Shown: positions 1-48,217 of the stretch, one piece after another
Layout: the number at the start of each line of letters is the position of its first letter
How positions within the stretch are numbered: the stretch's first letter is position 1
Position numbers and translations under genes: made by a program
Notes under the pieces: generated by a model
Database searches by the model: none
Told to the model about the DNA's origin: nothing
What the model saw: only the letters and a program-made list of their open reading frames with translations
Assembly (NCBI RefSeq): GCF_988242995.1
Contig: NZ_OZ547043.1
DNA length: 64,000 bases
Strand: one strand, 5' to 3'

Positions 1-230
1 AAGATCCGGTCGGTTCCACCATTGAGGCGATCAAAGAGGCGAAAGCGATCGCCGCTGCCGAAGGACGTGAGTTGATCATTCTCGCCTATGTGCTGGGTAC
101 CGATCTTGATACGCCATCATTAGAACAACAAAGCCAGATGTTGCTTGATGCCGGAGTGATTCTGGCCAGCAGCAGCACCAATACCGGATTGCTGGCGCGT
201 GAATTTATCTGCAAAGGGGAGGAAGCCTGA
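1..230 (+). CDS. yahF: C-terminal fragment of FdrA-like (acyl-CoA synthetase / succinyl-CoA ligase alpha-like) protein; 5' end lies outside the window
   Basis: Open frame from the window edge (codons in phase from nt 3) ending at TGA 228-230, overlapping the ATG of the next gene; lies upstream of yahG as in K-12 gene order. Confidence 0.55.
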   Translation, partial: DPVGSTIEAIKEAKAIAAAEGRELIILAYVLGTDLDTPSLEQQSQMLLDAGVILASSSTNTGLLAREFICKGEEA

Positions 231-1648
231 TGAGCCCGTCACTGTTTAGCCAACCGTTGAACGTTATTAACGTCGGTATCGCCATGTTTAGCGATGATCT
301 GAAAAAGCAGCATGTAGAAGTGACCCAACTCGACTGGACGCCGCCGGGGCAGGGCAATATGCAGGTGGTGCAGGCGCTGGATAACATTGCCGATTCGCCG
401 CTGGCAGACAAAATCGCCGCCGCTAACCAGCAGGCGCTGGAGCGCATTATCCAGTCGCATCCGGTGCTGATTGGTTTTGATCAGGCGATAAACGTGGTGC
501 CGGGCATGACGCCGAAAACCATTCTTCACGCCGGGCCGCCGATCACCTGGGAAAAAATGTGCGGCGCGATGAAAGGCGCGGTCACCGGGGCGCTGGTGTT
601 CGAAGGGCTGGCGAAAGATCTCGACGAGGCGGCTGAACTGGCGGCCTCCGGGGAGATCTCCTTCTCGCCGTGCCACGAACATGACTGCGTGGGATCGATG
701 GCGGGTGTTACCTCGGCCTCGATGTTTATGCACATCGTAAAAAACAAAACCTACGGCAACATCGCTTACACCAATATGAGTGAGCAGATGGCGAAGATTT
801 TGCGTATGGGCGCTAACGACCAGAGCGTGATTGACCGCCTCAACTGGATGCGCGATGTGCAGGGGCCAATGCTGCGCGACGCGATGAAAATTATCGGCGA
901 AATCGATCTGCGCTTAATGCTGGCGCAAGCGCTGCATATGGGCGATGAATGCCATAACCGCAATAACGCCGGGACGACGCTGCTGATTCAGGCGCTGACG
1001 CCGGGGATTATTCAGGCGGGTTATTCCGTCGAGCAACAGCGCGAAGTGTTTGAGTTTGTCGCCAGCAGCGACTACTTCTCCGGCCCGACGTGGATGGCGA
1101 TGTGTAAAGCGGCGATGGATGCGGCGCACGGCATCGAATACAGCACCGTGGTCACCACCATGGCGCGTAACGGCGTCGAGTTCGGCCTGCGGGTCAGCGG
1201 CCTGCCGGGGCAATGGTTTACCGGCCCGGCGCAGCAGGTGATCGGCCCGATGTTTGCCGGTTATAAGCCGGAAGATTCGGGGCTGGATATCGGCGACAGC
1301 GCCATCACTGAAACCTACGGCATTGGCGGATTTGCCATGGCGACCGCGCCTGCTATCGTCGCGCTGGTGGGCGGTACGGTGGAAGAGGCTATCGATTTCT
1401 CCCGCCAGATGCGTGAAATCACTCTCGGTGAAAACCCCAACGTCACCATTCCGCTGCTCGGTTTTATGGGCGTGCCGTCGGCAATCGACATCACCCGCGT
1501 GGGCAGCAGCGGCATTCTGCCGGTGATCAACACCGCCATCGCCCATAAAGATGCGGGCGTCGGCATGATTGGTGCGGGCATTGTGCATCCACCATTCGCC
1601 TGCTTCGAGAAAGCCATTCTCGGCTGGTGCGAACGTTACGGCGTCTGA
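230..1648 (+). CDS. yahG: DUF1116-family protein
   Basis: 472-aa ORF; length and sequence recognised as E. coli YahG; coupled to upstream gene. Confidence 0.85.
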   Translation: MSPSLFSQPLNVINVGIAMFSDDLKKQHVEVTQLDWTPPGQGNMQVVQALDNIADSPLADKIAAANQQALERIIQSHPVLIGFDQAINVVPGMTPKTILHAGPPITWEKMCGAMKGAVTGALVFEGLAKDLDEAAELAASGEISFSPCHEHDCVGSMAGVTSASMFMHIVKNKTYGNIAYTNMSEQMAKILRMGANDQSVIDRLNWMRDVQGPMLRDAMKIIGEIDLRLMLAQALHMGDECHNRNNAGTTLLIQALTPGIIQAGYSVEQQREVFEFVASSDYFSGPTWMAMCKAAMDAAHGIEYSTVVTTMARNGVEFGLRVSGLPGQWFTGPAQQVIGPMFAGYKPEDSGLDIGDSAITETYGIGGFAMATAPAIVALVGGTVEEAIDFSRQMREITLGENPNVTIPLLGFMGVPSAIDITRVGSSGILPVINTAIAHKDAGVGMIGAGIVHPPFACFEKAILGWCERYGV

Positions 1649-1742
1649 CCTGCAAACGCACCTTACGATCCCTTCTCCCTTCTGGGGAGAGGGGCAACCT
1701 CACTCTCATAACCCCATCACCCACTGTAGCGGACATAACAAC

Positions 1743-2693
1743 ATGAAAGAACTTGTGGTCGTTGCCATTGGTGGCAACAGCATTATCAAAGATAACGCCA
1801 GCCAGTCGATTGAGCATCAGGCGGAGGCGGTGAAAGCCGTCGCCGATACGGTGCTGGAAATGCTGGCTTCCGATTACGACATTGTGCTGACCCACGGCAA
1901 CGGACCGCAGGTCGGTTTGGATTTACGCCGCGCGGAGATTGCCCACGAGCGCGAAGGGCTGCCCTTAACGCCGCTGGCGAACTGTGTGGCGGATACGCAA
2001 GGCGGCATTGGCTACTTGATCCAACAGGCGCTGAATAACCGACTGGCGCGTCACGGTGAGAAAAAAGCCGTCACCGTGGTGACTCAGGTGGAAGTGGATA
2101 AAAACGATCCGGGTTTTGCTCATCCCACCAAGCCCATCGGCGCATTCTTCAGTGAAAGCCAGCGTGACGAATTACAAAAGGCAAACCCTGACTGGCGTTT
2201 TGTTGAAGATGCCGGACGGGGCTATCGCCGCGTGGTCGCCTCGCCGGAACCGAAACGTATTGTCGAAGCACCTGCCATTAAGGCGCTGATCCAACAAGGT
2301 TTTGTGGTGATTGGCGCGGGCGGCGGTGGAATTCCGGTGGTGTGCAGTGAAGCGGGGGATTACCAAAGCGTGGACGCGGTTATCGACAAAGATCTCTCTA
2401 CCGCGCTATTGGCCCGTGAAATTCACGCCGACATTCTGGTGATCACCACCGGCGTCGAAAAAGTGTGTATTCACTTTGGCAAGCCGCAGCAGCAGGCGCT
2501 GGATCGGGTGGATATTGCCACCATGACCCGCTATATGCAGGAAGGGCATTTCCCGCCTGGCAGCATGTTGCCAAAAATCATCGCCAGCCTGACGTTCCTG
2601 GAGCAGGGCGGCAAAGAAGTGATTATCACCACGCCGGAATGCCTGCCTGCGGCGCTGCGCGGTGAAACAGGCACACATATTATTAAAACGTAA
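1743..2693 (+). CDS. yahI: carbamate kinase-like protein
   Basis: 316 aa from ATG 1743 (MKELVVVAIGGNS...), typical carbamate kinase N-terminus; the ORF-track start at 1569 is an upstream extension. Confidence 0.85.
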   Translation: MKELVVVAIGGNSIIKDNASQSIEHQAEAVKAVADTVLEMLASDYDIVLTHGNGPQVGLDLRRAEIAHEREGLPLTPLANCVADTQGGIGYLIQQALNNRLARHGEKKAVTVVTQVEVDKNDPGFAHPTKPIGAFFSESQRDELQKANPDWRFVEDAGRGYRRVVASPEPKRIVEAPAIKALIQQGFVVIGAGGGGIPVVCSEAGDYQSVDAVIDKDLSTALLAREIHADILVITTGVEKVCIHFGKPQQQALDRVDIATMTRYMQEGHFPPGSMLPKIIASLTFLEQGGKEVIITTPECLPAALRGETGTHIIKT

Positions 2694-2702
2694 GGACGTA
2701 AG

Positions 2703-4085
2703 ATGAAAAAAAACAATAGCCGCCGTGAGTTTCTGAGCCAGAGCTGTAAGATGGTCACCGCCGCCGCGCTGTTTGGTACCTCTGTGCCGCTCGCCCATGC
2801 GGCAGTCTCTGGCACCCTAAACTGCGACGCGAATAACACCATGAAAATCACTGACCCGCACTACTATCTCGACAACGTGCTGCTGGAAACCGGTTTTGAC
2901 TACGAAAACGGTGTGGCGGTACAGACCCGCACGGCGCACCAGACCGTAGAGATTCAGAACGGCAAAATTGTTGCCCTGCGCGAGAACAAGCAGCATCCGG
3001 ACGCCACGCTGCCGCACTATGACGCTGGCGGTAAGCTGATGCTGCCCACCACCCGCGACATGCATATTCATCTCGACAAAACCTTTTACGGCGGGCCGTG
3101 GCGCTCGCTCAATCGCCCGGCAGGCACCACCATCCAGGACATGATCAAACTCGAGCAGAAAATGCTGCCGGAGCTGCAACCGTACACTCAGGAACGAGCG
3201 GAAAAACTGATCGATTTATTGCAGTCGAAAGGCACTACCATTGCCCGCAGCCACTGCAATATCGAACCGGTTTCCGGCCTGAAAAATCTGCAAAATTTGC
3301 AGGCGGTGCTGGCGCGACGTCAGGCGGGCTTCGAGTGTGAAATTGTCGCCTTCCCGCAGCACGGTTTGCTGCTGTCGAAATCGGAACCCTTAATGCGTGA
3401 AGCGATGCAGGCGGGGGCGCATTACGTCGGCGGTCTGGATCCGACCAGTGTTGATGGCGCGATGGAAAAATCCCTCGATACCATGTTCCAGATTGCGCTG
3501 GACTACGACAAAGGCGTTGATATTCACCTGCACGAAACCACTCCGGCAGGCGTGGCAGCCATCAATTATATGGTTGAAACGGTGGAGAAAACGCCGCAAC
3601 TGAAGGGCAAGCTGACCATCAGCCACGCCTTTGCGCTGGCAACGCTCAATGAGCAACAGGTAGATGAACTGGCGCACCGGATGGCGGCGCAGCAAATTTC
3701 TATCGCCTCGACGGTGCCGATTGGCACGCTGCATATGCCGCTCAAACAGTTGCACGACAAAGGCGTAAAAGTGATGACCGGCACCGACAGCGTTATCGAC
3801 CACTGGTCGCCTTACGGCCTGGGCGACATGCTGGAAAAAGCCAATCTGTACGCGCAGCTCTATATTCGTCCTAACGAACAGAACCTCTCCCGCTCGCTGT
3901 TTTTAGCCACTGGCGATGTATTGCCGCTCAACGAAAAAGGCGAGCGCGTGTGGCCCAAAGCGCAGGATGATGCCAGCTTTGTGCTGGTGGACGCCTCCTG
4001 TTCCGCCGAGGCGGTGGCGCGTATCTCGCCGAGAACGGCGACGTTCCATAAAGGGCAACTGGTGTGGGGGAGTGTGGCAGGTTGA
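2703..4085 (+). CDS. yahJ: amidohydrolase-family deaminase with Tat signal peptide
   Basis: 460 aa; N-terminal SRREFLSQ twin-arginine motif; metal-dependent hydrolase His motifs (HIHLD). Confidence 0.85.
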   Translation: MKKNNSRREFLSQSCKMVTAAALFGTSVPLAHAAVSGTLNCDANNTMKITDPHYYLDNVLLETGFDYENGVAVQTRTAHQTVEIQNGKIVALRENKQHPDATLPHYDAGGKLMLPTTRDMHIHLDKTFYGGPWRSLNRPAGTTIQDMIKLEQKMLPELQPYTQERAEKLIDLLQSKGTTIARSHCNIEPVSGLKNLQNLQAVLARRQAGFECEIVAFPQHGLLLSKSEPLMREAMQAGAHYVGGLDPTSVDGAMEKSLDTMFQIALDYDKGVDIHLHETTPAGVAAINYMVETVEKTPQLKGKLTISHAFALATLNEQQVDELAHRMAAQQISIASTVPIGTLHMPLKQLHDKGVKVMTGTDSVIDHWSPYGLGDMLEKANLYAQLYIRPNEQNLSRSLFLATGDVLPLNEKGERVWPKAQDDASFVLVDASCSAEAVARISPRTATFHKGQLVWGSVAG

Positions 4086-4379
4086 TACGCATTTGAAACG
4101 CCTGCAATGGTGAATCGTAAGAGATTTAAAGCCCCAGGGAGTGGGGCGGGAATGGTTTGTTAATGAATGATCCTGAACTTTATAATCTCCCGGCATAATT
4201 TCCAGGGGATTATTTGAGAGAAATACACAAAAGTGAGTTTTAACAATATTTATCAAGCCATAAATGTGACCTGCTTCGGATAAAAAAGATTAAAAATAGA
4301 AAAACCAATGATACTCTTGCTGATGGTTATCAACAGTAATTAAGATGTGATTTTTTTCCGTAATCGCGAAAATATTCTC

Positions 4380-4790
4380 ATGACCATAAAAGAAAAAATC
4401 TCACAAAAATATCCCCATGCTTCCTTTTGTACTTTTGGCGATTCAGCAGCGTTGGCCGATCACCTCGCAACGTTGATTGCGACAGGTGTTAAAACAGCTT
4501 CCTGTGGTTCGCTGGCGGGATGTATTGAAGACAACGCATTTCCGATGATTGGTGAGTATAAGATTGTAGAAAATAGCCGTGGTGAGCCTGTCTGTGTTAT
4601 CAGAGTGATTGGCCTGCATTTACTGCGCTTTTCTGATGTCACCGCGGAGCTTGCCCGTAAGGAAGGTGAAGGTGACCTCAGTCTTGAATATTGGCGTAAT
4701 GAACACCGTCGTTTTTTCCAGGCAGAAGGATGCTATTCACCCGAAATGGACGTTATCTTTGAAGAATATGCCCTTATTGACGTTGTGTAG
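4380..4790 (+). CDS. ASCH-domain protein (YqfB-like fold); not present at this locus in K-12
   Basis: 136 aa from ATG 4380 (MTIKEK...); ASCH-like sequence; an alternative GTG start at 4347 is possible; flanked by AT-rich non-coding DNA. Confidence 0.55.
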   Translation: MTIKEKISQKYPHASFCTFGDSAALADHLATLIATGVKTASCGSLAGCIEDNAFPMIGEYKIVENSRGEPVCVIRVIGLHLLRFSDVTAELARKEGEGDLSLEYWRNEHRRFFQAEGCYSPEMDVIFEEYALIDVV

Positions 4791-5040
4791 ATAACTATTT
4801 TTCTACGCGAAATAAGCTCACAAACATAAAGTATCGCTAATTTTGTTTATTTTGCTGTTTTTTACGTGATGATTGTCACACTTATTGTTACTGCCCGTTT
4901 TGTCCATATTTATAACCAAATTTTTAATAGCTGCCTGAAATAGGGCTGTTTATTCTGCATAAAAATATTCGAAAATTCTTATTCTCTCCAGCGCGCTAAT
5001 TTGGGCGAACACTTCCTGACTACCCTGCAATGAGGCTGAA

Positions 5041-6027
5041 ATGATGAATAAACGTTTTGTTATCAATATGGTGTCTTCGCTGTTATTAGGCGCTGCGCTA
5101 ATTTCTGCGCCGCTCCAGGCAGCGGAAAAAGTCGTGGTGAATATCTCTAAAGTCGATGGTATGCCGTGGTTTAATCGCATGGGCGAAGGTGTGGTCGAGG
5201 CGGGTAAAGCCTTTGGTGTTAATGCGTCACAGGTGGGGCCTTCAAGTACTGATGCTCCGCAACAGGTTAAAATCATTGAGGATTTAATCGCCCGTAAGGT
5301 TAATGCAATTACAATTGTGCCAAACGATGCCAACGTGCTGGAACCGGTATTCAAAAAAGCGCGAGATGCCGGAATTGTGGTTCTGACCAACGAATCCCCC
5401 GGTCAGCCAAGTGCTAACTGGGATATCGAAATCATTGATAACGAAAAATTTGCCGCTGAATATGTTGAGCATATGGCGAAACGCATGGGTGGCAAGGGCG
5501 GCTATGTGATTTACGTGGGTAGTTTGACCGTGCCGCAGCATAACTTATGGGCTGACTTGCTGGTGAAATACCAGAAAGAGCATTACCCGGATATGCATGA
5601 AGTTACCCGCCGCATGCCGGTTGCCGAGAGTGTGGATGACTCACGTCGTACCACACTGGACCTCATGAAAACCTATCCTGACTTGAAAGCGGTTGTCTCC
5701 TTTGGTTCAAACGGTCCGATTGGCGCGGGACGTGCAGTGAAAGAGAAACGGGCGAAAAATAAAGTCGCAGTCTATGGCATGATGATCCCTTCACAGGCGG
5801 CATCACTGATTAAAAGTGGTGATATCACCGAAGGGATTACTTACGATCCGGCCTCTGCAGGTTACGCACTCGCGGCCGTCGCCAGCACGTTGCTGAAGGG
5901 TGAAGAGATCAAACCTGGATTAGAAATGGAGAATCTCGGTAAGGCCGACGTAGATATGGATAAGCGAATTATCCGTTTCCATAAGGTATTACTGGTCAAC
6001 AAAGACAATATCGACTCACTTTATTAA
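5041..6027 (+). CDS. periplasmic monosaccharide-binding protein of a CUT2 ABC transporter (LsrB/YtfQ-like)
   Basis: 328 aa; signal peptide (LLGAALISAPLQAAEK); C-terminal ...VNKDNIDSLY resembles the LsrB family; first gene of a PBP-ATPase-permease-permease block. Confidence 0.8.
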   Translation: MMNKRFVINMVSSLLLGAALISAPLQAAEKVVVNISKVDGMPWFNRMGEGVVEAGKAFGVNASQVGPSSTDAPQQVKIIEDLIARKVNAITIVPNDANVLEPVFKKARDAGIVVLTNESPGQPSANWDIEIIDNEKFAAEYVEHMAKRMGGKGGYVIYVGSLTVPQHNLWADLLVKYQKEHYPDMHEVTRRMPVAESVDDSRRTTLDLMKTYPDLKAVVSFGSNGPIGAGRAVKEKRAKNKVAVYGMMIPSQAASLIKSGDITEGITYDPASAGYALAAVASTLLKGEEIKPGLEMENLGKADVDMDKRIIRFHKVLLVNKDNIDSLY

Positions 6028-6075
6028 TCCATTTCTTCGGGGCGAAAGCCCCGATTCTTATTGCCAGGGGATGCT

Positions 6076-7560
6076 ATGGAAACCTTCCTTTCCCTTCGTC
6101 ATATCAACAAAACGTTTCATGCCACGCGAGCGCTGCGCGATGTTTCTCTCGACTTTATGTCGGGTGAGGTGCACTGCCTTGCCGGGCAAAACGGCTGTGG
6201 TAAATCGACGTTGATTAAAATTATGTCCGGTGTTTATCGCCCGGATGAGGGGGCGGAAATTACGCTTGGTGGGAAAAACTGGTCAAAGCTGACACCCGCC
6301 GCTTCGGTGGCGCAGGGGATTCAGGTGATTTATCAGGACCTCTCTTTATTTCCTAACCTGAGTGTCTGGGAGAATATCGCCGTGAATCACTATCACCACG
6401 GTCTGTTTGTTAACCGCCGTCGTCTGCGTGAGGTGGCGCAGGCGGCAATGACCAGTATTAACGTCACATTGCCACTGGATACGCTCGTTTCTGAGCTTTC
6501 AATTGCCCGCTGTCAGCTGGTGGCAATTTGCCGTGCACTGGCGCAGGACGCACGGTTGATCGTGATGGATGAACCAACCGCTTCGCTGACCCATCAGGAA
6601 GTGCAAGGGTTATTACAGGTGGTGCATCAATTGCGGGAACGCGGGATCTGCGTGGTCTTCGTCAGTCATCGTCTGGAAGAAGTGATGGAAGTTTCCGACC
6701 GTATTTCAGTGCTGAAAGATGGTGAGCTGGTCGGGACCTTTCCGGCCGCAGAGATGACCACAAAACAACTCAGTTTTCTGATGACCGGCCAGGAGTTCGA
6801 ATATCAGGTACGAGAGTTGTGGCAGGGAAAATCCAGCACCCCGGTGCTGGAGGTGCGTAATTTAAGTCGTCATGGGGAATATCAAAATATTAACTTGCGG
6901 GTGGAAGCGGGCGAAGTGGTGTCGATTGTTGGCCTGCTTGGTGCGGGGCGCACGGAATTATGTCTGAGTCTGTTTGGTATGACCCGACCGGATGCTGGTG
7001 AGATCCTCATCAACGGTCAGCCGGTTACACTGCATAGTAACCAGGACGCCATCCGCCACGGTATTGGTTATGTTTCGGAAGATCGCATGTCGCGCGGTTT
7101 GGTGATGGCGCAATCTATTGAAGACAACATCATTAGCACTGTTTTTCACAAGGTAAAAGATCGCTTCGGCTTTCTGAGTGAAGCTAAAGTGCGTGACCTG
7201 GTGGACAGGCTAATCAAGGCATTGACCATCAAAGTCTCTGACCCACATCTCCCGGTGAATACGCTTTCCGGGGGTAACGCGCAGCGAGTATCGATCGCCA
7301 AATGGCTGGCGATTGGGCCACGACTGTTGATTCTCGATAGCCCGACAGTCGGTGTTGATATCGCCAACAAAGCAGGAATATACGGCATTATCAGCGATCT
7401 GGCGGCTCATGGCATTGCGGTATTGATGATCTGCGATGAAATTGAAGAAGCGTGGTATCAAAGCCACCGGATTTTGGTAATGCAGAAAGGTCAGATCACC
7501 CATAGCTTCCTGCCTGACAGCAGTTCTCAGGCCAGGATTGCGGAGGTGGTAAATGGCTGA
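6076..7560 (+). CDS. sugar ABC transporter ATP-binding protein with two nucleotide-binding domains
   Basis: Walker A GQNGCGKST and a second NBD (GLLGAGRTEL), LSGG signature motifs; ATG 6076 preceded by GGGGA Shine-Dalgarno; the track start at 6061 is TTG. Confidence 0.85.
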   Translation: METFLSLRHINKTFHATRALRDVSLDFMSGEVHCLAGQNGCGKSTLIKIMSGVYRPDEGAEITLGGKNWSKLTPAASVAQGIQVIYQDLSLFPNLSVWENIAVNHYHHGLFVNRRRLREVAQAAMTSINVTLPLDTLVSELSIARCQLVAICRALAQDARLIVMDEPTASLTHQEVQGLLQVVHQLRERGICVVFVSHRLEEVMEVSDRISVLKDGELVGTFPAAEMTTKQLSFLMTGQEFEYQVRELWQGKSSTPVLEVRNLSRHGEYQNINLRVEAGEVVSIVGLLGAGRTELCLSLFGMTRPDAGEILINGQPVTLHSNQDAIRHGIGYVSEDRMSRGLVMAQSIEDNIISTVFHKVKDRFGFLSEAKVRDLVDRLIKALTIKVSDPHLPVNTLSGGNAQRVSIAKWLAIGPRLLILDSPTVGVDIANKAGIYGIISDLAAHGIAVLMICDEIEEAWYQSHRILVMQKGQITHSFLPDSSSQARIAEVVNG

Positions 7561-8524
7561 ACTGAAAAAACGTCATGAATTCTGGCTGGCATTACTGATT
7601 GTGGGGCTGTTTGTTGGCCTTGCCTGGCGCAGCGACGAGTTTCTGACATTCGGTAATTTGTACGATCTCGCCAATAACTATGCCATGTTGACTATTCTCG
7701 CCTGTGGTTTGTTTGTGGTGTTAATTTCCGGTGGGATTGATATTTCGTTTCCGGCAATGACCATCATTGCGCAATACGGCATGGTGCTGTTGCTGCAAAA
7801 AATTGGTGGCAACTTTGCTGTCGCGTTTGCACTGGCGGGCGGCATCGGCATTTTACTTGGCTTAATAAACGCCTTACTGGTTAATCGCCTACGGGTGCCG
7901 TCTATCATCATCACCATTTCGACGCTGAATATTTTCTATGGCCTGCTGTTATGGTTGAGTAAAGGTGTGTGGCTGTACGACTTTCCGCCGTGGTTTGAGC
8001 AGGGGGTAATGTTGTTCAAGTACACCGATGCTGACGGCTATGACTATGGCCTTGGTCTGCCGCTGATCGCCATGATTACGGTGGTGCTGCTAACAGCGTT
8101 TATCATGAATTTCACCAGTGTAGGGCGCAAAATTTATGCCCTTGGCGGGAACCGTGAATCAGCCAGTCGCATCGGCTTTAGCGTGCTGAAACTGCAACTT
8201 TTCGTTTACGGCTATATGGGATTGATGTCTGGTGCTGCGGGTGTAGTGCAGTCGTGGACGGTGATGACTGTCGCCCCCGATTCTCTTCTGGGTTATGAGC
8301 TGACAGTACTGGCTGCGGTGGTGCTTGGCGGCACTAGTTTGCTCGGCGGGCGCGGCACGTTAACCGGTACTTTGCTCGGCGTGGTGTTGTTGGCAGTGAT
8401 GCAAAACGGGCTAAATTTATTGGGAGTCTCGTCTTACTGGCAAACATTGATCACCGGCATCATCATCGTTGCCAGCATTAGTGCCACGGCGTGGAGTCAG
8501 CATCAGAACCGGAGTCTGCTATGA
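7553..8524 (+). CDS. sugar ABC transporter permease
   Basis: 323 aa, multi-pass hydrophobic; start overlaps the ATPase stop. Confidence 0.8.
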   Translation: MAELKKRHEFWLALLIVGLFVGLAWRSDEFLTFGNLYDLANNYAMLTILACGLFVVLISGGIDISFPAMTIIAQYGMVLLLQKIGGNFAVAFALAGGIGILLGLINALLVNRLRVPSIIITISTLNIFYGLLLWLSKGVWLYDFPPWFEQGVMLFKYTDADGYDYGLGLPLIAMITVVLLTAFIMNFTSVGRKIYALGGNRESASRIGFSVLKLQLFVYGYMGLMSGAAGVVQSWTVMTVAPDSLLGYELTVLAAVVLGGTSLLGGRGTLTGTLLGVVLLAVMQNGLNLLGVSSYWQTLITGIIIVASISATAWSQHQNRSLL

Positions 8525-9477
8525 AAAAATCGTGGCGTAACAACGTTGAGTTTTACTTGATCGGCCTGCTGGTGCTAACTGTTGCAGCCTTCAGCATTAC
8601 TATGCCGGAGATTTTCTGGTCGATAAGTAATTTCCAGTCCGTCGCTTCGCAAATGCCCGTGCTGGGCATTCTGGCGTTGGCTATGGCGGTGACCATGCTT
8701 TGCGGTGGCATTAACTTGTCAATTATTGCCACTGCTAACGCCTGTTCACTGGTAATGGCGTGGGTGGCGACTCAGTATCCACCGGGTATTGCTACGGTTG
8801 TCGCTACGCTGCTGGCGGGCGCTGGCGCGGCGGTGATAATCGGTTTATGTAACGGCGTATTGATTGCTGGTATTCGAGTGTCGCCAATTCTTGCAACGCT
8901 TGGGATGATGACGTTGCTCAAAGGGGTAAATATTCTGGTGACAGGCGGTAGCGCCATTGCCAATTATCCCTCATGGGTGCTGTGGTTGAATCATGCGCAA
9001 TGGTTCGGTATTCCGCTACCGATGTGGTTGTTTGCCGCAGTGGCACTGGGGCTGTGGATATTGCTGGAGAAAACGCCGCTCGGTAAAGCCATTTATCTGA
9101 TTGGTTCTAACGAACGAGCAACACTTTACTCCGGTATTAACACTCGTCGGGTGCTGATATGGGTGTATGTCATTTCCGCCTTACTTTGTGCGGTAGCGGC
9201 ATTTTTGATGATGTCGAAACTCAACTCGGCTAAGGCCTCTTATGGCGAATCGTACTTGCTGGTGTCAATCCTCGCGGCAGTACTCGGCGGGGTTAATCCG
9301 GACGGCGGCAGCGGGCGGATAATTGGTATGGTGCTGGCGCTGTTTCTTCTGCAAATTATTGAAAGCGGCTTCAATATTCTCGGTATAAGCCCCTACCTGA
9401 CGATGGCCTTATGGGGAACGTTGCTGCTCTGTTTCATTCAGGCTCGCGGCATGTTGGGGCTGGATCGGGTGGTTTAA
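8521..9477 (+). CDS. sugar ABC transporter permease (second subunit)
   Basis: ATG 8521 overlaps the upstream stop (ATGA); hydrophobic 318-aa product. Confidence 0.8.
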   Translation: MKKSWRNNVEFYLIGLLVLTVAAFSITMPEIFWSISNFQSVASQMPVLGILALAMAVTMLCGGINLSIIATANACSLVMAWVATQYPPGIATVVATLLAGAGAAVIIGLCNGVLIAGIRVSPILATLGMMTLLKGVNILVTGGSAIANYPSWVLWLNHAQWFGIPLPMWLFAAVALGLWILLEKTPLGKAIYLIGSNERATLYSGINTRRVLIWVYVISALLCAVAAFLMMSKLNSAKASYGESYLLVSILAAVLGGVNPDGGSGRIIGMVLALFLLQIIESGFNILGISPYLTMALWGTLLLCFIQARGMLGLDRVV

Positions 9478-43530: not shown

Positions 43531-44740
<1,210 letters not shown>

Positions 44741-44810
44741 AAATCGCGGAAGGGATGAAACAACAGCGCCTGACGGCGCTGTGTCTGGCATGCCTGCAAT
44801 CCGGGAGACT

Positions 44811-44848
<38 letters not shown>

Positions 44849-44912: not shown

Positions 44913-45746
44913 TTAACGCATATTCAGTTTATTGGCGTGGTAGGCAATATGCTCGCCAATAAAACTGGAGACAAAATAATAGCTGTGATCATAACCCTCG
45001 TGATAACGGATTAACGTTTTGATATTCATCTCCTGGCAGATCTTTTCAAGATTTGGAGTCCGCAGCTGTTCTGCGTAAAAATCATCACTCAACCCCTGAT
45101 CAACCATTATTTCCGCAATGCGTTGACCTTGTGAAATAAGACTCACCGGATCGTAATCCAACCAGGCTTCTTTATTTTCACCAAGATATGCGGTAAAGGC
45201 TTGCTGTCCCCACGGTACTTGCGATGGGGAGACAATGGGCGAAAACGCCGAGACGCTGACATATTCATCTGGATTACGTAACGCCAGCACCAGTGCGCCC
45301 AGCCCGCCCATAGAATGACCTGAGATAGACTTTCTGGCCGTTGCCGGAAAATGTTGCATCACTAAATCCGGCAGTTCGTTGCGGATATAGTCATACATTT
45401 TGTAATGTTCATTCCACGGCGCTTGCGTTGCGTTCAGGTAAAACCCGGCACCTTGCCCGAGATCGTAACGGTCGGCATCTGCGACATGACTGCCTCGCGG
45501 ACTGGTGTCTGGCGCAACAACAATAATGTTGTGCTCCGCCGCGTAACGTTGCATCCCTGATTTAGTAATGAAATTCTGCTCGTTGCAGGTCAGGCCCGAA
45601 AGCCAGTACAACACCGGCAATTTTTCACTTGCGGCTTTTGGTGGGAGATAGACGCCGACATTCATTTCACATTTCAGTGATTGGGAATAATGCCGATACA
45701 CATTTTGCCAGCCGCCAAAGCTGGCATGTTTTTCAATGAGTTCCAT
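44913..45746 (-). CDS. frmB: S-formylglutathione hydrolase
   Basis: 277 aa; esterase GHSMGG motif. Confidence 0.95.
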   Translation of the reverse strand: MELIEKHASFGGWQNVYRHYSQSLKCEMNVGVYLPPKAASEKLPVLYWLSGLTCNEQNFITKSGMQRYAAEHNIIVVAPDTSPRGSHVADADRYDLGQGAGFYLNATQAPWNEHYKMYDYIRNELPDLVMQHFPATARKSISGHSMGGLGALVLALRNPDEYVSVSAFSPIVSPSQVPWGQQAFTAYLGENKEAWLDYDPVSLISQGQRIAEIMVDQGLSDDFYAEQLRTPNLEKICQEMNIKTLIRYHEGYDHSYYFVSSFIGEHIAYHANKLNMR

Positions 45747-45839: not shown

Positions 45840-46979
<1,140 letters not shown>

Positions 46980-46983
46980 TCAG

Positions 46984-47259
46984 CTATTTAAGATAGGCAC
47001 GAACCAGTTCAATAGTGTCGTCAACGGATTGGCTGACTTCGCGGCTGTAGCAGTCATTTCGGTCAAACGTTTCCCGGATATGGCTTTCAAGCACTTCTGC
47101 CATCAGCCCGTTAGCCGCGCCCCGAACGGCAGCGATCTGTTGGAGTATGGCACGGCATTCGGCATCACCCTCCAGCGACCGTTCCAGAGCATCAATCTGC
47201 CCCCGAATACGACGAACTCGAGTAAGGACCTTTTTCTTCTCTTCCGGAGTACTGGGCAT
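46984..47259 (-). CDS. frmR: formaldehyde-responsive repressor (CsoR/RcnR family)
   Basis: 91 aa from [21 protein letters not shown]... Confidence 0.9.
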
Positions 47260-47285
47260 TTCGCACCTCATCATCTGCACGCAAT

Positions 47286-47334
47286 ATACTATAGGGGGGT
47301 ATGCTATATGTCAATGCATACCCCCCTATAGTAT
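47286..47334. promoter_or_regulatory. frmRAB operator: 19-bp perfect inverted repeat with G6/C6 tracts
   Basis: ATACTATAGGGGGGTATGC ... GCATACCCCCCTATAGTAT just upstream of the frmR start. Confidence 0.8.
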
Positions 47335-47443
47335 ATAACACTGGAGAATAAAATTTATCCGGTGAATGTAGTCGGATAACAAAAAGTAAAGAGGGGCCTA
47401 ATCGACAGGGAAGGCCGCCCCGGATAGCGGGCGGCAGAAGCAA

Positions 47444-48217
47444 TCAGAATTTCCAGGTCAGATGGGCTGCAAATTGCAGACCGTTATAATCATCAGTTGG
47501 GGTGTCGTACCACACTTTACCTGCCGTCAGCCCGAGATTAAGTTGCTCAGTCAGCGGTTGAATACGTTGCAAACTGACGCTCTTCATGCTGCCGTAGCGT
47601 GTTTCTGGCGTCCAGTCATAGGTGTAAGCGCCTGTTCCGCGGCTTAGCCATAGTTGCGTATAACCAGTGCCGCGCGGGTCATTCAGACGCACGGAAATCA
47701 TATTGCTGTAACTACCACCTGCATCGCTGGAGTCATAATGGGTATAGCGGTAGCTGGAGATCACCGGGCCAGTATAGAGTGATACGCCGCCTTGCCAGGC
47801 ATCGACTTCGACATCATCGTAATATTTCGTGTAGCGATAACCGGTCGTGAAAAGCGTTTTTGGCAACAGTGCCAGGTTAATATCCTGACGAAAATCCTGG
47901 CGGGCAAAGACCGGCGTATTATCCGCAAAGGCAATACCCGTTCGGGTTGTCAGCCAGTTATTCCATTTATACCAGACCGCACCCTGACCGCGAGTGGCAT
48001 TGAAATGTTCAGTTTCATAATCACGACGCCCCTGGGAAAGATTAAAAAGCAGCGTTGCGTTTTCAACTTTCGCCACCAGTTCAGCATACGCTAAATTACG
48101 GTTGCCATGATCGCCAGAATAATCGGTAAAATCGTAGCCCGCGGTAATGGAAGTTAACCCGGCATAAGCGGGCAATGCGCTAAAAATTGCTGCCGCTAAT
48201 AACGTCCGTTTTATCAT
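47444..48217 (-). CDS. yaiO: outer-membrane beta-barrel protein
   Basis: 257 aa with signal peptide; ends in ...HLTWKF aromatic terminus. Confidence 0.9.
   Translation of the reverse strand: MIKRTLLAAAIFSALPAYAGLTSITAGYDFTDYSGDHGNRNLAYAELVAKVENATLLFNLSQGRRDYETEHFNATRGQGAVWYKWNNWLTTRTGIAFADNTPVFARQDFRQDINLALLPKTLFTTGYRYTKYYDDVEVDAWQGGVSLYTGPVISSYRYTHYDSSDAGGSYSNMISVRLNDPRGTGYTQLWLSRGTGAYTYDWTPETRYGSMKSVSLQRIQPLTEQLNLGLTAGKVWYDTPTDDYNGLQFAAHLTWKF

Follow-up and report, generated by a model that had tools for sequence, protein, structure and literature searches.

A perfect inverted repeat at the Escherichia coli frmRAB promoter, read as two inverted type I sites for FrmR

Introduction

The frm promoter (Pfrm) of Escherichia coli is the closest described system. 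Denby et al. (2016, Sci Rep 6:38879, PMC5146963) reported there a "large inverted repeat centred at -29" and described it as tandem type I sites for the repressor FrmR. EcFrmR bound MG1655 Pfrm with a Kd of ~220 nM, against 3600 nM for the control promoter PydhY, and formaldehyde dissociated the complex (PMC5146963). The FrmR structure from the same study contains methylene bridges between Pro2 and Cys35. Binding was assayed on a PCR-amplified promoter fragment, and the sites were assigned by sequence and modelling; footprints that resolve E. coli FrmR on the two sites to single nucleotides are reported by neither Denby et al. nor Osman et al. (PMC5146963, PMC4528141, PMC5016687).

Osman et al. 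(2015, 2016) compared the frm promoters of E. coli and Salmonella in an alignment (PMC4528141, PMC5016687). The Salmonella frmRA operator resembles that of E. coli in having a C6 tract within a T/A-rich inverted repeat, in requiring a flank for binding and in being bound more weakly in the presence of formaldehyde (PMC4528141, PMC5016687). Mutating one T/A-rich flank abolishes FrmR binding, and two tetramers bind per fragment (PMC5016687), with a KDNA of ~1e-7 M (PMC4528141, PMC5016687). However, in Salmonella a single tract site serves both tetramers within a distinct operator-promoter sequence, and Salmonella FrmR is only 52% identical to E. coli FrmR and is encoded at another genomic location, without frmB.

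RcnR operators likewise consist of two type I sites for a CsoR/RcnR-family repressor (Iwig & Chivers 2009, cited in PMC5146963), although RcnR responds to Ni/Co and FrmR to formaldehyde. RcnR sites are arranged as direct tandem repeats with centres ~19-20 bp apart (19 bp according to Denby et al., PMC5146963), whereas the FrmR pair is inverted, with 32 bp between centres. Here, we compare these systems with an inverted repeat upstream of frmR in a 64,000-nt stretch of E. coli DNA (NCBI RefSeq assembly GCF_988242995.1, contig NZ_OZ547043.1), referred to below as the window.

Results

The repeat lies between yaiO and the frmRAB operon, with frmR directly downstream and frmA and then frmB behind it. 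FrmR, FrmA and FrmB each exceed the curated NCBIfam cut-offs; the second, weaker family match of FrmR is RcnR. The genes are as follows.

44913..45746, minus strand: frmB/fghA, S-formylglutathione hydrolase (TIGR02821, 399.5 bits; RefSeq agrees)
45840..46949, minus strand: frmA, S-(hydroxymethyl)glutathione dehydrogenase (TIGR02818, 743 bits; RefSeq agrees)
46984..47259, minus strand: frmR, formaldehyde-responsive repressor of the CsoR/RcnR family (RefSeq and NCBIfam NF008464, 189 bits with a cut-off of 133)
47444-48217, minus strand: yaiO, upstream of the repeat and transcribed towards it

The 19-mer ATACTATAGGGGGGTATGC occupies 47286-47304, and its exact reverse complement occupies 47316-47334. 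A preliminary description had claimed a perfect 19-bp inverted repeat at these positions. The repeat is real but its arms were understated, as perfect pairing continues for 2 nt further out on each side and the repeat finder returned two 21-nt arms that are 100% complementary and separated by an 11-nt spacer. The distance to frmR, given earlier as 30-75 bp, was close enough: 27-75 nt by the earlier coordinates and 25-77 nt upstream of the ATG for the full arms. A scan of the window for perfect inverted repeats with spacers of up to 40 nt identified this repeat as the longest; the runners-up have arms of 13 and 12 nt, and the longest arm in 40 shuffles of the window was 9-15 nt. The analytic expectation for arms of at least 21 nt is 6e-7 per window.

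Read in the direction of frmR, the repeat region is ...GTTATATACTATAGGGGGGTATGCATTGACATATAGCATACCCCCCTATAGTATATTGCGTGCAGATGATGAGGTGCGAAATG (minus strand). Each arm holds one 17-bp ATAC-N9-GTAT unit with the form ATAC-TATAGGGGG-GTAT, so that both combine the ATAC/GTAT flanks and the G6/C6 tract of type I operators. The two units are inverted relative to each other, with centres 32 bp apart, or about three helical turns. Beyond the two arms, the ATAC-N9-GTAT motif is absent from the window, and there are thus no further FrmR-like sites there that would mark extra regulon members. Nor does the 17-nt core recur elsewhere in the window when up to 3 mismatches are allowed. The elements of the repeat and of the promoter within it are listed below.

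47284..47304, minus strand: promoter-proximal arm, GCATACCCCCCTATAGTATAT in the frmR direction; overlaps the -10 hexamer
47286-47302: proximal 17-bp putative FrmR type I site, ATACCCCCCTATAGTAT, within the promoter-proximal arm
47286..47291, minus strand: predicted -10 hexamer TAGTAT, 17-nt spacer from the -35 hexamer; an overlapping alternative, TATAGT, lies at 47288-47293
47305..47315, minus strand: 11-nt spacer between the arms, carrying most of the -35 hexamer
47309..47314, minus strand: predicted -35 hexamer TTGACA of the frmRAB promoter, a perfect consensus match
47316..47336, minus strand: promoter-distal arm, ATATACTATAGGGGGGTATGC in the frmR direction
47318-47334: distal 17-bp putative FrmR type I site, ATACTATAGGGGGGTAT, directly upstream of the -35 hexamer

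A consensus scan of positions 47000-47700 found a single sigma-70-like promoter, TTGACA-17-TAGTAT on the frmR strand (10/12 positions), and no divergent promoter on the plus strand. The hexamer coordinates place the -35 in the repeat spacer and the -10 inside the promoter-proximal arm. The most conserved part of the proximal site, TATAGTAT, doubles as the -10 hexamer. From this arrangement we infer a transcription start near 47279-47281, a few nucleotides downstream of the -10 hexamer, leaving the repeat essentially outside the mRNA. In a sort-seq study of Pfrm, Rohlhill et al. (2017) reportedly located two repressor sites of 19 bp, the first upstream of the -35 and the second over the -10.

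The element described in Pfrm by Denby et al. is the same one: a repeat centred near -29 with two type I sites, ATAC/GTAT flanks and 9-bp G/C-rich centres. The two differ in that their MG1655 operator carries one mismatch, at the equivalent of 47303, whereas the repeat in the window strain is perfect over all 21 nt. The site centres are 31 bp apart according to Denby et al. and 32 bp by our count.

A 261-nt stretch around the repeat matches 5415/5426 complete E. coli genomes, with the 100%-identical matches annotated as frmR / yaiO. The repeat sequence occurs once per genome in 5415 of 5426 complete E. coli genomes; in ~42% of complete genomes of the species, the 97 bp around it are the same as in the window. 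In E. coli O121:H19 strain 16-9255, TTGGCA replaces the TTGACA -35 hexamer through a change at the equivalent of 47311, which might lower frm promoter strength.

Comparison with RcnR operators had been suggested as a check. In the MG1655 rcnR-rcnA intergenic region, we read the sites TACTGGGGGGTAGTA and TACTGGGGGGGAGTA directly as direct tandem repeats. These share with FrmR operators a G6-7 tract between TACT and AGTA half-sites that are 7 nt apart. The RcnR half-site geometry, TACT-N7-AGTA, recurs in the consensus of the proximal FrmR site, ATACTCCCCTATAGTAT; the E. coli arms have one degenerate half-site, TACC in place of TACT. In RcnR sites the tract takes up the whole gap between the half-sites, whereas in FrmR sites the gap also contains TAT(A), which serves at the same time as the -10 hexamer. 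Unlike the RcnR sites, the FrmR sites bracket the -35 hexamer.

We surveyed frmR loci by searching the FrmR protein against one genome per species. The 80 loci obtained come from gamma-, beta- and alpha-proteobacteria, and frmA immediately follows frmR in 75 of these. We counted 83 ATAC-N9-GTAT motifs in the 9,600 nt preceding the 80 frmR genes, against 5 in the rest of the loci (395,301 nt), so the motif is conserved ahead of frmR-frmA in other genomes. Of the 80 loci, 65 have one or more strict sites, 11-40 nt from the start codon, and 18 have two. Several loci without a strict site carry near variants, such as GTACTCCCCCGGAGTAT. The consensus given above was derived from 33 distinct proximal variants.

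The proximal site, fused to the -10 hexamer, was found in all three proteobacterial classes. In Brucella/Ochrobactrum, this site and the -35 hexamer are fused, giving TTGACATACTCCCCCATAGTATATAG. A second site, located ahead of a TTGAC -35 and mostly inverted, was found in Escherichia, Edwardsiella, Providencia, Morganella, Serratia, Pantoea, Erwinia, Aeromonas and Deefgea, with centre-to-centre distances of 32-35 bp, and the TTGAC between the two sites is conserved in related loci. The second site upstream of the -35 is thus found mainly in Enterobacterales, Aeromonas and Deefgea. One Paraburkholderia locus (L041) has two strict sites only 23 bp apart.

Some loci depart from these layouts. In a Citrobacter metagenome-assembled genome (L007), Klebsiella grimontii (L010) and Maribrevibacterium (L012), frmR lies at 2501-2776 of the locus without an adjacent frmA. 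Their FrmR is 91% identical to that of E. coli, and the upstream sites have diverged (ATACTCCGATGCAGTAT). In K. grimontii, the next ORF of at least 80 aa begins ~690 bp downstream of frmR and encodes 383 aa; judged by eye, it presumably resembles an iron-containing alcohol dehydrogenase. That three unrelated genera have nearly the same sequence points to a mobile module. In Lysobacter/Xanthomonadaceae loci (L035, L036, L037, L054, L057 and L079), a half-site-like ATACTCCCCCCCAC abuts the ATG at the start of the tblastn match (ATACTCCCCCCCACTATG), which suggests a leaderless transcript, a mis-called start or a different operator layout. Operons of the frmRAB type with a two-site operator are also plasmid-borne, as on Edwardsiella anguillarum plasmid 1 and in 2 E. 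coli plasmid matches. A version of the repeat with a GTGGAG tract is common to the Edwardsiella plasmid, Enterobacter and Morganella loci, a distribution compatible with horizontal spread.

We compared arms within and between genomes. The inner end of the proximal arm carries a G-to-T change (plus strand; equivalent of 47303) in K-12 MG1655 and strain M15, which leaves 19 perfect nucleotides, then a mismatch and then one more pair. The distal arm of strain WG5 contains GGGAGG, and both arms of E. albertii have changes that do not compensate each other. Loci of Tatumella, Pasteurellaceae (Mesocricetibacter and Actinobacillus) and alpha- and beta-proteobacteria have a single site and no partner arm, and the two Erwinia sites are closer as direct than as inverted repeats. 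A perfect palindrome is confined to Escherichia and the Morganella/Edwardsiella-plasmid type, and is dispensable. Concerted evolution or homogenisation of the arms, hinted at by the E. coli G6 and the Edwardsiella/Morganella GTGGAG types, was considered and rejected, as the two arms of one genome differ by a mean of 2.5 positions and the same arm differs by 2.7-3.4 between genomes, which is about the same.

Between yaiO and the repeat, a poly-C tract at ~47393-47400 varies in length, being GCCCC in the window, ~10 C in K-12 and ~9 C in M15. A GC-rich hairpin at 47415-47436 on the minus strand (GCCGCCC, an 8-nt loop and GGGCGGC) starts ~8 nt past the yaiO stop codon and may be the yaiO terminator or a REP-like hairpin; the terminator scan left it unscored because no T-run follows it. 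On the other side of the operon, the yaiL-frmB intergenic region contains a ~1.28-kb element (43568-44844) in place of ~98 bp of K-12 MG1655. Its transposase ORF (43760-44740, plus strand) encodes an IS110-family 'RNA-guided transposase' (NF033542, 253 bits). Strain 7/2 has no transposase gene annotated between yaiL and fghA.

Discussion

We interpret the repeat, with high confidence, as the operator of the E. coli frmRAB promoter, made of two inverted type I sites of the CsoR/RcnR kind that are bound by FrmR. It lies in the promoter of an operon that encodes its own CsoR/RcnR (DUF156) repressor, with frmR directly downstream and both the -35 and the -10 enclosed. The preliminary description had already proposed an FrmR operator controlling formaldehyde detoxification, and the identity of the genes, the enclosed promoter, conservation at orthologous loci, the RcnR-like geometry and published binding all support that assignment. 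It had spoken of one operator, for which we substitute two sites, one per arm. Its placement of the architecture within the CsoR/RcnR family stands, while the formula TACT-N-G6 is better replaced by ATAC-N9-GTAT, or by TACT-ATA-G6-TA at this locus. The FrmR binding experiment that it suggested has in essence been published already, as specific, formaldehyde-reversed binding of EcFrmR to an frm promoter fragment (PMC5146963).

A repeat of this size could instead work as nucleic acid structure, namely as a DNA cruciform or as an RNA hairpin that acts as a read-through terminator or stabiliser for yaiO or as part of the frmR mRNA leader. The single-stranded DNA fold is indeed strong (a 21-bp stem, -21.5 kcal/mol, z = -7.1 against shuffles), and yaiO is transcribed towards the repeat from 47444. 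However, the stem lacks a following T-run on both strands, and a scan for terminators was empty. The only Rfam matches were to miRNA precursors, with 20-27 bits where the gathering scores are 73-139, and are artefacts common to hairpins in general; the repeat thus has neither the U-tract of an intrinsic terminator nor membership of a curated RNA family. The predicted promoter also lies inside the repeat, so that the frmR mRNA would begin at the repeat edge and include almost none of it. Finally, the natural variants (K-12, M15, WG5 and E. albertii) disrupt pairing in one arm without compensation, many taxa have a single site without a partner arm, and Erwinia carries its sites as direct repeats. 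These one-sided variants, the direct repeats and the divergence between arms fit two individually recognised protein sites and not a base-paired structure, and we consider an explanation by structure in place of protein sites very improbable.

It could also be argued that the palindrome arose by chance or was left behind by a mobile element, as terminal inverted repeats or a REP/MITE-like sequence, and has no regulatory role. The IS110-family element only 2.4 kb away indicates that the region has seen mobile-element activity. However, the expected number of such repeats is far below one (see above), the sequence is unique in the window and single-copy in nearly all complete E. coli genomes, and in three proteobacterial classes the core motif keeps a constant spacing to the frmR gene downstream of it. 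The window scan, the shuffles and the analytic expectation rule out a chance origin, and the single copy and conserved position rule out a relic; the probability left to either is negligible.

A separate question is whether the extra symmetry of the E. coli repeat is itself functional. Pairing is perfect beyond the 17-bp cores and the sites are about three helical turns apart, which would be compatible with the faces of an FrmR tetramer clamping both sites or with a supercoiling-dependent cruciform that tunes the promoter. Clamping of both sites by one FrmR tetramer was raised as a possibility by Denby et al. (PMC5146963). One-sided mismatches, single-site taxa and arms that are no more alike within than between genomes argue against a need for perfect symmetry, and we regard a function of this kind as improbable.

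With two FrmR sites as the preferred reading, one just upstream of the -35 and the other over the -10 hexamer, regulation would proceed as follows. Without formaldehyde, FrmR tetramers on the sites would keep RNA polymerase off the promoter; we infer both the occupancy of one tetramer per site and occlusion of the polymerase as the mode of repression. FrmR would thereby repress its own gene, the first in the operon, and we conclude from this gene order that the operon is autoregulated. Formaldehyde cross-links Pro2 of FrmR to Cys35 covalently, which alters the DNA-binding surface; FrmR dissociates, and its release would allow transcription of frmR, frmA and frmB.

The element, its regulator and the effector chemistry are already known from published work, and the preliminary reading was right apart from small details. 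The frm promoter already serves synthetic methylotrophy research as a biosensor for formaldehyde. The 80-locus survey makes a modest addition: the proximal site is broadly distributed, the second inverted site is narrower in its distribution, and perfect palindromy is dispensable.
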